From a virus (lineage: Duplodnaviria; Heunggongvirae; Uroviricota; Caudoviricetes): DNA of 17,758 nt. The stretch spans positions 1 to 17,758 of the IMG/VR virus record IMGVR_UViG_2657245634_000007. One strand, given 5' to 3'. Below, in pieces: positions 9,001-15,000 of this stretch (position 1 is the first letter of the stretch; every line of letters begins with the position of its first letter). A program made the position numbers.

Positions 9001-12000
9001 TTGAAATCCTTCTGGATGAAATTATTAACGAAATGAATACTCATGGCATGCAATCCGAAACAGATATTAAGTAAAAGGGACCACATGACCGTTATCGAGC
9101 ATATCCAGGAAAATCCAGATTGCAGTAGAGAAGATATATCCCTCGCACTTGGAAGAAGCGCAACTTCTATCAGTAATGAATTATCACGGTTATTGTGGAA
9201 TGGGTTAATAGTACGAACTGGAGAAAAAAACAAAATGATTCTGTACTGCGTAAACAATCTGCCGTTTGGATACAGCAATCCCCTAAGTGTTATGTTCAAC
9301 CAGTGATAGTGATGTTCCGACAGGAGAGAGCAGAGAAAGGGGAATCAGCATGAAATTTTCCAAATTTTCTGAGTTGGTGAATCGTATTTTGTCCAACAAC
9401 CACAGCCATCGTCGCGATATGGATGTAACGATCGTTGTTCATTCGCCTGGCAGCATTGGTTCAACACCCTCAGTTGAAGTTCAGTCAATTCACGCTGGTT
9501 TTGATTGGGATTCCGGGAAAGTGCTGATTTTCCCAGCACAGCCACTGACCACTCTAACACCAGAACAGATTACTGATATTACTGATAGTGTGCGCAAAGG
9601 TCAGTCCTGGCACGCATATCAGGAATACAAGAAGCATAAAGAGCAGTTGGAAAAATTATCGATTGAACTTGATGCCGCAAAACAGCGCATTGCAGAGCTG
9701 GAGGGTAATTTCACGGCGCTGGCAGCGGAGAATGCGGGGCTAAAGGCGATATGTGATGACCGTCGCAGGTTCATCATGAATGGGGTGCAGATGGGTTATA
9801 TCAAGGTGCCAGCAGCGGAAACAGATCCAGACCTTGAGACAATTCGCATTGCTATATCACCACAAAAGCCCATTCCAGCCACCGATGCTTTCCTGGCTGA
9901 AGTACGGGCGCAGGGCGTGGAGATGTTTGCGGAGTGTGCATACACGCTTGAACATCATGATCACGCAGTAGCCTTCGCCGCTGAGCTTCGCAAAGGAGGC
10001 AACCAGTGAGCAAGATTGACTATCAAGAACTGCGCGAGGCGGCGGAACAGGCAACGCAAGATGAATGGGTAGCATATATTTTGCCGGGTCATAACGGCAT
10101 TTATCCTGCGCGCACGTCTGAGGGTAGGCATTGCGGATACTTTATTGACTGGCCTGGCGTCTGTCAGGGGCGGGAGAGCATCAACATGAGCATCAGAACC
10201 TACGCAGTGAATTGCAATGACGCATGGCTAAACACCGAAGGTGATGACATCTCCGGCTCATACGTTAAGTACAAAGACCATCAGGAAGTGGTTGCCGCTC
10301 TTGAGGCCAAGTGCGCGGCGCTGGCAGCGGAGAATGCGGGAATAAAGTCTGCAATTCCAGAATCACGGGATATTGAAGATGACAATGACAATATGGATGA
10401 CGTATCTCTCGCGGAAGACTTCGGGTTCAATCATGCAATAGAACGGATGAGGAGACAGATACCTGAAACGCCAACCACTGATGCTTTCCTGGCTGAAGTC
10501 CGGGCGCAGGGGGTGGATGCTGCTATAGAAGCTGCAAAAAATCTGGTGGCCCAAGAATATGAGTATAAGGATTTCAAAGCGGCGCAGAGTGATTGCTGTA
10601 TGTACCCTGGTTCAGACCTGGTAGGGAAGGTTGAAATGACTGAGTGGTTAGTTGACTTTGCTGCCCAGCTTCGCAAAGGAGGCAACCAGTGAGCGAAATT
10701 AATTACCAGGCACTGCGTGAGGTGGCGGAACGTGCAATTCCAGCAATGGAACGCCTGTTAATGTTGCCAGCTGATGATGACTTGTTAAGTGAACAGGAAC
10801 TTAAAGATTACGGTGTGGATATTGATGCGCTCAACGCCTTCAAATTTCTGACCGGACCAGAAACCGTGCTGGCACTGCTGGATGAACGGGAAAGAAACCT
10901 GCAATACATCAAAAGCCGCGATCAGGAGAACGAGGATATTGCGCTAACGGTAGGGAAGCTGCGCGTTGAGCTTGAAGCAGAAAAACAGCGGGCAAAAGTT
11001 CTATTTATGGAAAATGCTCGGCTTAAGTCAGGCATAGCCGGTCTGATACACCTCGGTATTCGATATGCAGATGTTGAGGTCATGAAAATTGCTGGAGATG
11101 CCCAGCTTTCTACCCCATGCACTGACAGCATCATAAACAGCATTGCAACAGGCATTCGCATCAAAGGAGAGTGATATGGCGTTAACACACCACGAACTCT
11201 GTCAGATTGCGTACAAGTTCCTTAAGCGCAACGGGTTCAAGGTTTGCTTTCATGACCGCTTTGTTGCTGTAACCAGTACCGGAGAACAGCCAGATGCTAT
11301 GGGATTCAGAAATTCAGCATCATGCCTGATAGAGGCGAAGTGTTCTCGTGCTGACTTGTTGGCAGATAGAAAAAAGCGTTTCCGTAAAAATCCCTCACTT
11401 GGCATGGGCGACTGGCGATTCTTTATTAGTGAGCCGGAAATTATTTCAGTTGAGGATTTACCTCCCGGCTGGGGATTACTTCACGTTGTTAACGGAAGAG
11501 TACGGAAAGTACATGGATGGCCCAGGGGTAATTGCTGTTGGGGTAATCCTGACGATAAGCCATTTACTGGGAATAAGCAGGTTGAATGCGATTACATGTT
11601 ATCTGCATTAAGGCGCATGGAGTTGAGAGGGCACCTTAATGAAATATATGACGGTGTGATTGTTAATAAGAAAGAAGGAAACGCGGCATGATCACTATTA
11701 CCAAAGGGCGACTGCTGACAATCAAGCAGTGGCGCGAAACATACGGACCGGGTAGCAACGTTGTGCTTCCAGCAGAAGAAGCGGAAGAGCTGGCACGGAT
11801 TGCGCTGGCATCACTGGCAGCAGAGCCGGTGGCAAAGATTATAGCTCATTACCCATTAGGAGTTGACGCAGGCAAACAAAAATTCGTACAGGCCATTAGA
11901 GAGCTTCCTGACTTTGGCGGATATCTATTTGCCGCCCCTCCAGCGCCGATAGTGCCGGAAGAAATGTATTGGCAGGATGCGCCAGTTGAAGGCAGCAGCA

Positions 12001-15000
12001 AAGCGGCTGCATACGCTACAGGCTGGAACGATTGCCGCGAAGCCATGCTTCAGTCCGGAAACTTTCGGGAAAATAAAGATTCGTCAACCAATAATTTTCG
12101 GAAAATCCCGGAAGCGTCAACCAGCTCTCCGGTAACTCCGGCTCTTCTGCCTGGTGGTTTCACCATTGAGGAGGCGAAGGAATTACATGAAGACCTGGTA
12201 CGCAGCCACATAAGCAAGGCCTTAAGTGGCGAAAAGATGAAAAAGAAAGATCGCGATGCTGATTTGCGCTGGATTCATGGCGTTATAGTTCAGGCAGCGT
12301 GGTTTGTAAAAGCATCACTGGAGCAGAATGCACTATCGGGCAACTCTCCGGTAACTCCGGATGGTTGGATAAGCTGTAGTGAGCGAATGCCGGACGACAG
12401 GCAGGAGGTGAATCAATGAGCTGGCCTGATGCAATCGTAACTCTGGGGGTGGTATTCGCAGCAGCGTTTGTTGTGTTCTCGATTTGTCGATGGGGATAAC
12501 CACATGTTCGCTTTGATTCAACGCGGTCAGATATACACGGACAGAGCCGGATACCCCGTGGTGATTACTCGCATCACTGAGCACTCAGTGTTCTTTCGAC
12601 GGATGGACGGACGATCCGGGCGGGTACGCATTGGTGAGTTAAACTGCCTGTTCGAACATATTGACCACCAGGAGTACCGCAAAATTCTCGCGGACACTGA
12701 GCAGGAAAAGCACCTGAAAAAATTACGAGCCATAAAAAGGAAGTAAAGAATGAATAAAGCATTTGAACGATGGGTCCACCAGCGTTACGGCAATCGCTAT
12801 GACCTGACGCGAGATGTTGACGGCTTCCACTGTCGTGAAGTTGTGAAGCGAATGTTTGAAGTGTGGTGCCACTGCCGTGGGCTGAGTGTTGTGTGAGGTA
12901 ATACATGGGCAATGTGATTCAACTGGCTCCCAATGAATGGGTTTGTGAAAGCGTTCTTATCGCAATTACCGGGCTCAAACCAGGCACAATTCTTCGGGCC
13001 CGGAAAGAATGCTGGATGGTTGGAAGAGAGTATATTCACGTATCACCAGACGGTAATCCAAAGCCTTCCAGTGAATGTATGTATAACAGAAAAGCAATAG
13101 ATGCCTGGGTCGCCTCAATGAAAAACAAACACCCCAGGTGATTTAATATCATGAAATATGTAAGCTCGTATCGCTCTTGGGCGTCTGGAGGTATCGATGG
13201 ATAAAGTCAAATATCCAACAGGCGTCGAAAACCACGGCGGCACATTACGCATCTGGTTTAATTTTAAAGGTAAACGTGTCAGGGAAAATCTTGGTGTCCC
13301 TGACACTGCCAAGAACAGGAAGATCGCCGGGGAACTGCGGACATCAGTATGTTTTGCCATCCGCACAGGAAGCTTTGATTATGCTGCACAGTTCCCTGAC
13401 TCCCCCAACCTTCAGGCTTTTGGGGTAAGTAAAAAAGAAATTACGGTGAAGGAACTTGAAGAAAAGTGGCTGGATCTGAAACGAATGGAAATCTCTGCAA
13501 ATGCATTCAATCGCTATGAATCCGTTGCAAGAACGATGGTTCCGAAAATTGGAGGCAGTAGACTGGTGTCATCGGTAACCAAAGAGGAATTGCTGTATAT
13601 CAGGAAAGATTTGCTTACCGGGTATCAGAATTCAACGAAAAACAAAGCAGCAGCAAAAGGACGGAGCGTCGTTACTGTAAATTATTACATGACGACAATC
13701 GCTGGAATGTTTCAGTTTGCTGCAGATCACGGTTACTTAGAAGCAAATCCCTTCCAGGGAATTAAGCCTCTTAAAAGAGCCAGGGCAGAGCCAGATCCGC
13801 TAACTCGTGACGAATTTATTCGCCTGATAGATGCTTGCCGACATCAGCAGACGAAAAACCTGTGGTCATTGGCTGTGTACACAGGAATGCGTCACGGTGA
13901 ACTGGTCTCCCTGGCCTGGGAAGATATCGATCTGAAGGCAGGAACAATTACCATCAGGCGCAATTATACGAAACTTGGTGAGTTCACTCTACCGAAAACT
14001 GAAGCAAGCACAAACAGGGTTGTGCACCTTATCCAGCCCGCTATCAGTGTCCTGAAAAATCAGGCTGAAATGACAAGACTGGGTAAGCAGTACAACATCA
14101 AGGTGCAACTACGTGAATATGGACGTTCAGTGAACCATGAATGTACTTTCGTGTTTAACCCTCAAGTGGTTAGAAAAAGCGAACAGGTAGGTTTTGTCTA
14201 CAAAGTCGATTCTGTAGGTGACTCATGGGAAACAGCCATTAAGCGTGCAGGGATCAGGCATCGAAAGGCATACCAGTCACGACACACTTATGCGTGCTGG
14301 TCATTATCTGCCGGAGCAAACCCAAGCTTCATTGCCAGCCAGATGGGCCATGCAAGTGCCCAGATGGTATTCAATGTATACGGAGCATGGATGACTGACA
14401 GCAATGCAGAACAGATCGCAATGCTGAATCAGAAGCTGACAGATTATGTCCCAATGATGCCCCATAGTCACCAAAGTGACACCAGAGGCTTATTAAAATC
14501 AGTAAGTTAATCCTTAATACCCGTCATGTTAACTGCGTGGAGGGCAACACCACGCTTTACGCCCTGCCGAAACCCGAGGTTGTCCTGCGCTGGCGTGAAC
14601 AGACCACAGATGACTTCCGCTTCTGTTTTAAGTTTCCGGCGACCATTTCGCATCAGGCAGCATTACGACATTGCGATGATTTAGTGACTGAATTTTTGAC
14701 CCGCATGTCACCGTTGGCTCCGCGCATTGGGCAATACTGGCTGCAACTGCCTGCCACATTCGGCCCACGGGAGCTGCCTGCGCTTTGGCATTTTCTCGAT
14801 TCTCTCCCTGGCGAATTTAATTATGGTGTGGAAGTCCGCCATCCACAGTTTTTCGCCAAAGGGGAAGAGGAACAAACGCTTAATCGCGGTTTACATCAGC
14901 GCGGCGTTAATCGGGTGATTTTAGACAGCCGCCCGGTTCATGCAGCACGTCCACACAGTGAAGCTATTCGCGACGCTCAACGAAAAAAACCTAAAGTTCC

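Follow-up and report, generated by a model that had tools for sequence, protein, structure and literature searches.

A probable accessory segment of a lambdoid prophage at yecE, with a predicted PD-(D/E)xK nuclease, a mosaic DUF551-family gene and a candidate membrane micro-protein

The DNA considered here is a stretch of 17,758 nucleotides (nt) from a tailed phage (Caudoviricetes; IMG/VR record IMGVR_UViG_2657245634_000007, positions 1 to 17,758), referred to below as the window, and the subject is a group of three consecutive open reading frames (ORFs) at positions 11176-12499. A first-pass annotation of the same DNA had described them as a coupled operon of a nuclease-like protein, a protein with an internal repeat and a small membrane peptide, and had pointed to exclusion or abortive infection as a common theme of such modules. 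The three frames, and the ATGA stop/start overlaps that join ORF1 to ORF2 and ORF2 to ORF3, are indeed present:

11176-11691, + strand: ORF1, 171 amino acids (aa), its ATG preceded by AAGGAG
within ORF1: predicted catalytic residues D40, E53 and K55; also conserved are E37, D60, D64, K67, R70, R81, E137, R146 and R147
11688-12419, + strand: ORF2, 243 aa
12416-12499, + strand: ORF3, 27 aa (84 nt)

A mechanical list of ORFs extends ORF1 to a TTG at 11143; since AAGGAG precedes the ATG and the homologues of ORF1 begin with MALTH, the start is placed at 11176. Considered together, the observations described below are best explained if the interval is a segment of the early-left ('ea'/exo-xis type) accessory operon of a lambdoid prophage located at yecE of Escherichia coli, and if this segment holds three cassettes that are shuffled independently. 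This explanation is considered likely, and that judgement covers jointly the genomic context and the readings proposed for ORF1, ORF2 and ORF3.

ORF1 carries the sequences GEQPDAMGF and LIEAKCS, which correspond to the PD...ExK signature proposed in the first-pass annotation, and the conservation of this motif among homologues, which had been named as the point to be checked, is pronounced. In 33 homologues with 59-96% identity to ORF1 the residues D27, E37, D40, E53, K55, D60, D64, K67 and R70 and the GDWR sequence are invariant. Among 40 relatives with 33-56% identity D40 is invariant and E37, P39, E53, K55, D64, K67, R70, R146 and R147 are conserved in at least 90%, so that D40, E53 and K55 are kept down to 33% identity. 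In the AlphaFold (AF2) model of ORF1 (predicted local distance difference test, pLDDT, 83; predicted template modelling score, pTM, 0.78) one strand begins with D40 and the following strand ends with E53-x-K55, as in the canonical PD-(D/E)xK geometry. The alpha-beta-beta-beta-alpha-beta core fold of the superfamily is found in the model; its second core strand begins with the conserved acidic residue, and its third carries (D/E)xK. The only matches of the model in the PDB, searched with Foldseek, are weak ones, all of them to PD-(D/E)xK nucleases, and several phage entries named 'MmcB-like DNA repair protein' rank among the best matches in BFVD.

The kinship of ORF1 becomes visible mainly at the level of the family. 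A profile built from the 40 relatives matches PDB 3dnx (SPO1766), which we take to be the structural representative of PF06319, with E = 7.6e-5 and with the D...IECKxSRxDFxxDxK residues aligned; similarity to the 3dnx structure was found for ORF1. The same profile aligns weakly with the conserved IPD...IEMK stretch of Hjc, again with the D/E/K residues aligned. When the relatives were compared with Pfam one by one, weak sub-threshold matches were obtained to Hjc in 26 of the 40 (best E = 1.3e-4) and to the MmcB-like family in 11 of the 40 (best E = 2.9e-4). The earlier guess that a nuclease of MmcB type is present was therefore apt, and the profile search recommended for it succeeds in part: the family profile and the relatives give weak matches, whereas ORF1 alone has no PF06319 match at E <= 1 and does not reach the gathering threshold of that family. 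Likewise, neither the gathering threshold of PF01870 (Hjc) nor the full E-D-E-K tetrad is reached by ORF1. Judged from aligned sequences and from the model, ORF1 can be placed in the PD-(D/E)xK superfamily as a member of an unnamed family that appears to be sister to the MmcB-like and archaeal Hjc families and belongs to neither Pfam family.

Several points speak against this assignment or restrict it. ORF1 itself has no Pfam, NCBIfam or PADLOC match even at E <= 1, and position 7, which corresponds to the first acidic residue of the Hjc tetrad, shows no conservation in the 40 relatives. A single-sequence phmmer search of the PDB with ORF1 returned noise only, and no PDB entry reached E <= 0.001 in the Foldseek search, among whose hits 3dnx is absent, which is a caveat on the link to MmcB. 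Any substrate proposed for ORF1 is derived purely from family resemblance and gene neighbourhood.

The family is large and has no names. An exhaustive profile search collects 3,235 clusters at 50% identity, all 308 close homologues are unnamed or 'hypothetical', and the matches of ORF1 in PHROG are 9263 and 631, both of function unknown, besides a weak match to 'DNA repair protein' (E = 0.0046). The idea that ORF1 is a pseudogene is rejected in view of its intact frame and of its end-to-end alignment with homologues from many genera. In an identical genome the RefSeq annotation, made by the Prokaryotic Genome Annotation Pipeline (PGAP), lists ORF1 as a 'frameshifted' pseudogene of only 179 nt (L040 12001-12179, which corresponds to window 11176-11354); compared with the sequence, this label looks like an annotation artefact.

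Distant homologues of ORF1 in prophages have genes of DNA metabolism as neighbours, namely NinB, Dam, a DNA methylase and NA37. In a Chromohalobacter prophage (L031 5564-7671) the homologue is flanked by NinB, the Orf recombination mediator, on one side and by Dam/DUF968 genes on the other, and the nuclease there is a member of a nin-type recombination/replication block. By analogy with these relatives and neighbourhoods, ORF1 is most likely a structure-specific DNA endonuclease for the recombination or repair of phage DNA. It would be metal-dependent, would be made early after induction or infection, and could act on DNA that is branched or damaged, cutting it while the phage DNA is replicated, recombined or repaired. 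A nuclease of this kind could also be directed against DNA other than phage intermediates, in degradation of host DNA, in a stand-alone restriction-like defence or in action against a competing mobile element, which we regard as unlikely. Only a small number of loci have a methyltransferase next to the ORF1 homologue, and at such places orphan phage methylases are frequent. With 171 aa ORF1 is small, and its model is a single compact fold without a separate DNA-recognition or sensor domain; it has no match in PADLOC, and its closest relatives by sequence profile, MmcB-like proteins and Hjc, are repair and junction-resolving enzymes. The role in phage recombination or repair is therefore preferred. 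If a name and a testable activity (MmcB/Hjc-like structure-specific endonuclease) could be given to this family, which comprises thousands of 50%-identity clusters, occurs in clinically important Shiga toxin (Stx) prophages and has no function assigned in Pfam, NCBIfam or PHROG, very many prophages would be better annotated.

ORF2 shows a different kind of evidence, because its history can be read from repeats and junctions within the gene:

12125-12141, + strand: copy 1 of a 17-bp repeat, encoding SPVTP, residues 147-151
12344-12360, + strand: copy 2 of the 17-bp repeat, encoding SPVTP, residues 220-224, followed directly by the DUF551 start motif DGWISCSERMP
12142-12360, + strand: cassette of 219 bp (73 codons), bounded by the 17-bp repeats
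12393-12404, + strand: in-frame deletion junction, ...SERMPDD / RQEVNQ*, where megablast matches to Stx phages with the full domain break

The perfect direct repeat CTCTCCGGTAACTCCGG occurs exactly twice, at the two places where it had first been noticed, and a repeat match of this type was absent from 200 dinucleotide-preserving shuffles, even when 2 mismatches were allowed. The 73-codon cassette is lacking in three relatives (L043, L081 and L108), which read ...STSSPVTP/DGWISCS. In another relative of 395 aa (P0269) the cassette is present twice in tandem, which is the reciprocal of the cassette-less forms. Hence both products expected of unequal exchange between the repeats exist, and it may be assumed that such exchange between the 17-bp copies generates the loss and the duplication of the cassette.

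The second scar lies at the 3' end of the gene. Residues 226-241 of ORF2 match only positions 1-16 of the 68-position Pfam DUF551 (PF04448) profile, and the score of 23.5 bits is formally above the cut-off of 22 bits; a complete DUF551 domain is not found in ORF2, which agrees with the DUF551-like stub and the recombination scar described in the first-pass annotation. Relatives of 285-305 aa are 95-97% identical to ORF2 up to ...DGWISCSERMPD, beyond which they have a variable DUF551 core of 52-62 residues and then ...HWMPLPEPPQEVNQ. ORF2 jumps from SERMPDD to RQEVNQ, so that about 52-62 codons of the DUF551 core are missing. From this comparison the core is taken to have been removed by an in-frame deletion. 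ORF2 has thereby kept its frame and its stop codon, and the AGGAGGTG...ATGA signal from which ORF3 starts is retained as well. A CGCAG microhomology is a candidate at the deletion junction when it is compared with the full-length domain of the L080/L121 type. The junction codon, however, differs from that type (AGG versus GCG).

The stub recurs behind no fewer than five different N-terminal parts, in ORFs of 134-431 aa, and is therefore an inherited module and no private lesion of ORF2. A protein identical to the 243 aa of ORF2 occurs on 170 contigs under the RefSeq name 'DUF551 domain-containing protein'. When 80 loci with near-identical ORF1 are compared, the gene that follows ORF1 has at least 25 lengths or architectures, and the ATGA overlap is present in every case. 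Built from a shallow alignment, the model of ORF2 obtained with AlphaFold has a pLDDT of 37; it is uninformative and lends the reading no help. No similarity was found between ORF2 and the two Ea22 proteins of the window. Relatives of ORF2 (P0279, P0312, P0337 and P0365) are named 'dTDP-6-deoxy-L-hexose 3-O-methyltransferase' by several sources, a name for which the sequences provide no support and which looks like a propagated misannotation. Taken as a whole, ORF2 is best described, at the level of its sequence, as a patchwork gene of the DUF551 family with recombination scars. It offers a worked example of how short conserved repeats that code for linkers could drive the gain, loss and duplication of modules in lambdoid accessory genes.

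ORF3, the smallest of the three frames, encodes MSWPDAIVTLGVVFAAAFVVFSICRWG, which has a mean Kyte-Doolittle hydropathy of 2.63 over residues 6-24, and the hydrophobic peptide of 27 aa that had been pointed out earlier thus behaves as a conserved coding sequence. Its consensus consists of M[ST]WP[DE]A, a hydrophobic core and [FY]S[IV]CRWG. The following feature precedes it:

12403-12410, + strand: Shine-Dalgarno sequence AGGAGGTG of ORF3, inside the last ORF2 codons, 5 nt before the ATG

At junctions of the DUF551 and Ea22 types AGGAGGTG is conserved together with ...GAATCAATGA, and other junction types have GGAGGA or GAAGG variants. Similar 27-aa frames were detected with tblastn in 70 phage records. 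A degenerate DNA pattern, which fixes codons 1-6 and 24-26 of ORF3 (9 of its 27 codons) and not the position of the stop, finds at least 80 viral contigs; among the matches listed, 79 of 80 are open for exactly 27 codons, and they comprise 25 protein and 40 DNA variants. All 85 oriented instances that were checked start with ATGA in overlap with an upstream frame, and the upstream tails are very different and fall into five or more unrelated groups: ...EPPQEVNQ, ...ISVEDILR, ...NIEQEVNR, ...INEENILR and the stub ...DDRQEVNQ. In each locus that was opened (PhiR5_1, PhiR12_4, ArgO145, Stx2a_WGPS2, 933W and the lytic Avunavirus 24-2-1) the ATGA start lies on the stop codon of an annotated upstream gene and the frame itself is unannotated, as it is in all 8 records whose annotation was inspected, the identical RefSeq genome included. 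When 5,426 complete E. coli genomes were compared at the level of DNA, ORF3-like sequence was detected in 1,008 of them (~19%), plasmids included.

Variable sites of ORF3 are most frequent at third codon positions (22, compared with 16 at first and 12 at second positions), the ratio of nonsynonymous to synonymous substitution rates (dN/dS) on the unconstrained codons 7-23 is 0.14-0.62, and every variant has a mean hydropathy of 1.6-2.8 over residues 6-24. Frame and length are conserved, purifying selection is detected and a strong ribosome-binding site is present, which are the properties expected of a coding gene. Two observations weaken this reading. First, the search pattern fixes 9 of the 27 codons, which biases a dN/dS value for the whole gene downwards; second, the peptide is not found in the supplements of the Sakai ribosome profiling (RIBOseq) study, an absence that says little because the cultures were uninduced and the early genes of the prophages were off. 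Considering the conservation of frame and hydrophobicity, it is very probable that ORF3 is translated into a membrane micro-protein with a single helix. It would be a single-pass inner-membrane protein, translated by coupling to the stop codon of whichever gene precedes it, and it could modulate a host membrane protein during lytic growth.

The conservation could also belong to a recombination linker or to an element for translational coupling with which the ea block closes on its 3' side, in which case ORF3 would be non-functional and its open frame incidental. ORF3 is accompanied from locus to locus by the final codons of the gene before it, by the ribosome-binding site and by ...GAATCAATGA, which marks the region as a module boundary, and the frame is annotated in none of the records inspected and has left no trace in the RIBOseq data or in the searchable literature, where its peptide was not found. 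A linker of this kind does not account for the 27-codon length and the stop position, which are kept in 79 of the 80 matches listed despite a DNA identity down to 72-76%, for the excess of variation at third codon positions, for a dN/dS below 1 in the unconstrained middle codons, or for the fact that all variants are hydrophobic enough for a membrane helix. Moreover, the minimum gene length of Prodigal is 90 nt and that of common gene finders exceeds the 84 nt of ORF3, which would explain the missing annotation. The linker explanation is thus held to be quite improbable, and translation of ORF3 is preferred.

No sequence similarity to ORF3 was found in any library searched (Pfam, NCBIfam, PADLOC and PHROG). 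From the variants collected we lean, with some reserve, towards the view that ORF3 stands for a hitherto undescribed family of phage micro-proteins, membrane peptides of 27 residues whose start is always coupled to the preceding early gene. If ORF3 is translated and acts on a host membrane target in lytic growth, it would represent a new effector of early phage genes, hidden in genomes that have been sequenced very often; it also illustrates that a conserved gene can stay invisible in such genomes.

Some further observations concern the distribution of ORF3. The homologue in Escherichia phage 24-2-1 (Avunavirus; L042 2501-2584), MTWPEAFTTVGVVMAVAFAVYSVCRWG, follows a gene for an 'EaA protein', and ORF3 is also found in Av-05; because they are present in the strictly lytic Vequintavirinae, the ORF3 micro-gene and Ea-type genes seem to have moved between temperate and virulent phages. 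ORF3-like sequence follows a DUF551 gene at 150 plasmid places, for example in the ~93-99 kb NZ_AP027182.1 and NZ_CP128959.1, and the E. coli plasmids that bear it are possibly phage-plasmids. In 933W (L041 2501-2950) the homologue ends the ea block ~90 nt upstream of the hokW/mokW/sokW toxin-antitoxin locus, and in ArgO145 an opposite-strand toxin-antitoxin pair follows it. A Hok-like type I toxin was considered for ORF3 itself and rejected: ORF3 has about half the length of Hok, which is roughly 50 aa, it would be translated by coupling, and no opposite-strand promoter-like site lies nearby.

The genes around the three frames continue the same arrangement:

5881-6612, + strand: LexA-type/cI-like repressor gene, on the strand shared with ORF1-ORF3, the Ea22 genes, xis and int
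10006-10692 and 10689-11174, + strand: two Ead/Ea22-like genes, coupled to each other and to ORF1
12504-12746, + strand: DUF4222 gene, starting 4 nt after the ORF3 stop
12750-12896, + strand: ORF of 48 aa between the DUF4222 gene and xis
12905-13141, + strand: excisionase gene (xis)
13197-14510, + strand: integrase gene (int), followed by the host genes yecE (DUF72), yecN, cmoA and cmoB

The pair of Ea22-like genes overlaps by GTGA, and the second of them is separated from ORF1 by a 1-nt gap. The three frames are therefore part of a longer coupled chain, cI-Ea22-ORF1/2/3-DUF4222-xis-int, and of the 'coupled operon' of the first-pass annotation the coupling stands, whereas the operon is not self-contained, since the Ea22 genes and DUF4222 continue the chain. 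A consensus scan of the + strand found no promoter-like site between 7903 and 13354, and the only terminator-like sites in that interval, at 10082-10099 and 12575-12590, both lie within ORFs; the overall counts of the scan are not above those of shuffles, and no internal signal exceeds the shuffle expectation. No Rfam family was found within 10.5-13.3 kb, and there are no tRNAs. Over positions 11176-12760 the sequence agrees to 100% with that of E. coli O111:H21 strain 15A, and the whole window is 99.99% identical to the prophage of that strain at yecE/yecN/cmoA, except for window 9318-9695. In the phage collection 371 records match the interval; they are mainly Stx-converting phages with ~98% identity, and in most of them the alignment ends at window 12392-12397.

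The association between the members of the group is loose. Where 2 kb or more of sequence before ORF3 is available, ORF1 is present in only 7 of 60 loci, and ORF3 is present in none of the 34 ORF1 loci from other species. Near-identical ORF1, with sufficient DNA behind it, is found on 72 viral contigs; ORF3 lies within 1.5 kb in 45 of them and is absent from 27. In AU5Stx1 ORF1 and a full-length DUF551 gene are followed by an unrelated ORF of 32 aa in place of ORF3. Co-occurrence of the components across genomes, as expected of a module of nuclease and peptide, is thus not found, and ORF1 and ORF3 assort independently. Neither ORF1, ORF2 and ORF3 nor the flanking Ea22 and DUF4222 proteins have a match in PADLOC-DB 2.0 at E <= 1. 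A different association is observed further downstream: with ORF3 of the MSWPD type, which is the type of the window, DUF4222 follows 4 nt later in 15 of 15 loci, and with the other types in 0 of 58. Judged from these loci, ORF3 and DUF4222 may be the real travelling unit for the MSWPD allele.

That the three ORFs form a functional unit, in which nuclease and small membrane peptide act jointly as a superinfection-exclusion or abortive-infection system, is very improbable, in spite of their translational coupling, of the 45 in 72 contigs where ORF3 accompanies near-identical ORF1 and of the fact that prophage accessory regions often hold defence genes, because ORF3 occurs without ORF1 in 53 of the 60 informative loci, behind at least five unrelated kinds of upstream gene, because ORF1 occurs elsewhere without ORF3 (the other species, the 27 contigs and AU5Stx1), because ATGA coupling is the rule along the whole operon and does not single out ORF1-ORF3, because the absence of PADLOC matches and of an own promoter-like site in this repressor-controlled early-left operon leaves nothing to suggest expression in a repressed lysogen or kinship with defence genes in that database, and because ORF3 is also found in strictly lytic Avunavirus phages. 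The suggestion of exclusion or abortive infection is accordingly not supported, and an ordinary mosaic lambdoid accessory region is found instead. Nothing here is conceptually surprising, and two modest points emerge: a large uncurated family of MmcB/Hjc-like nucleases and what appears to be a widespread gene for a membrane peptide of 27 codons.

Two side observations concern other parts of the prophage. In strain 15A a copy of IS903B (L040 9464-10520) substitutes for window 9318-9695 (378 nt) and truncates a gene that is intact in the window at 9287-10009. On the - strand of the window Rfam detects, at gathering level, a C4 antisense RNA at 4090-4177 (82 bits) and isrK at 4202-4278 (62 bits), which adjoin genes of Rha/antirepressor type at 3481-5193 (-); the combination suggests a C4-icd-ant immunity module in the style of P1/P7 within a lambdoid prophage.

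When the interval is compared with known systems, the nearest counterpart of the whole is the exo-xis or 'ea' region, which is reported to be expressed early, to be non-essential and mosaic, and to affect the lysis-lysogeny decision (PMC3824215, PMC7093339). The exo-xis genes of lambda and Stx phages (ea22, orf60a, orf61, orf63, orf73 and ea8.5) share a compartment with ORF1-ORF3, that of early-left accessory genes between the recombination/regulatory genes and xis/int. Among those exo-xis genes that have been characterised no counterpart of ORF1, ORF2 or ORF3 was found, and the words 'nuclease', 'DUF551', 'transmembrane', 'resolvase' and 'restriction' are absent from a survey of exo-xis protein modelling (PMC8614690). 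For ORF1 the closest comparison is with MmcB-like proteins (PF06319), which have a similar small single-domain size and in common with ORF1 the motif layout D ... (I/V)-E-x-K-x-S-R-x-D-F-x-x-D-x-K. Unlike them, ORF1 has the additional conserved sequences GMGDWR and WGLL and a C-terminal KQxE...ALRR helix. MmcB is described as an SOS-regulated PD-(D/E)XK endonuclease, through which Caulobacter is protected against mitomycin C and cisplatin (PMC9578287). This role in crosslink repair is known only for the Caulobacter protein, the studied member of PF06319, and MmcB is a chromosomal SOS gene, whereas ORF1 is phage-borne in an early operon.

In the comparison with archaeal Hjc (PF01870) D40, E53 and K55 of ORF1 align with PD, E and K of Sulfolobus solfataricus 1hh1, and the spacing from D to E is 13 residues in both. 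The aligned residues of 1hh1 are presumably the catalytic D42, E55 and K57. ORF1 differs from Hjc in that it has no conserved counterpart of the first catalytic glutamate (position 7) and, in the model, an added beta-hairpin and C-terminal helices, and the Hjc matches of its relatives are far below the family threshold. ORF2 is to be compared with the full DUF551 proteins of lambdoid phages: the proteins of 285-305 aa in E. coli prophages, to which ORF2 is 95-97% identical along its entire length, carry the complete domain, the function of which is itself unknown, and ORF2 has kept no more of it than profile positions 1-16 of 68 and a few residues at the end. Because so little of the domain remains, it should be unable to fold like the full-length members. 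For ORF3 the analogy is with small membrane peptides such as the type I toxins Hok/Gef and the regulators MgtS, AcrZ and PmrR, which like ORF3 are very short, single-helix and hydrophobic. The mode of expression distinguishes ORF3 from the Hok/Gef type: the toxins are translated from their own antisense-controlled mRNA, whereas ORF3 would be translated by coupling inside an operon.

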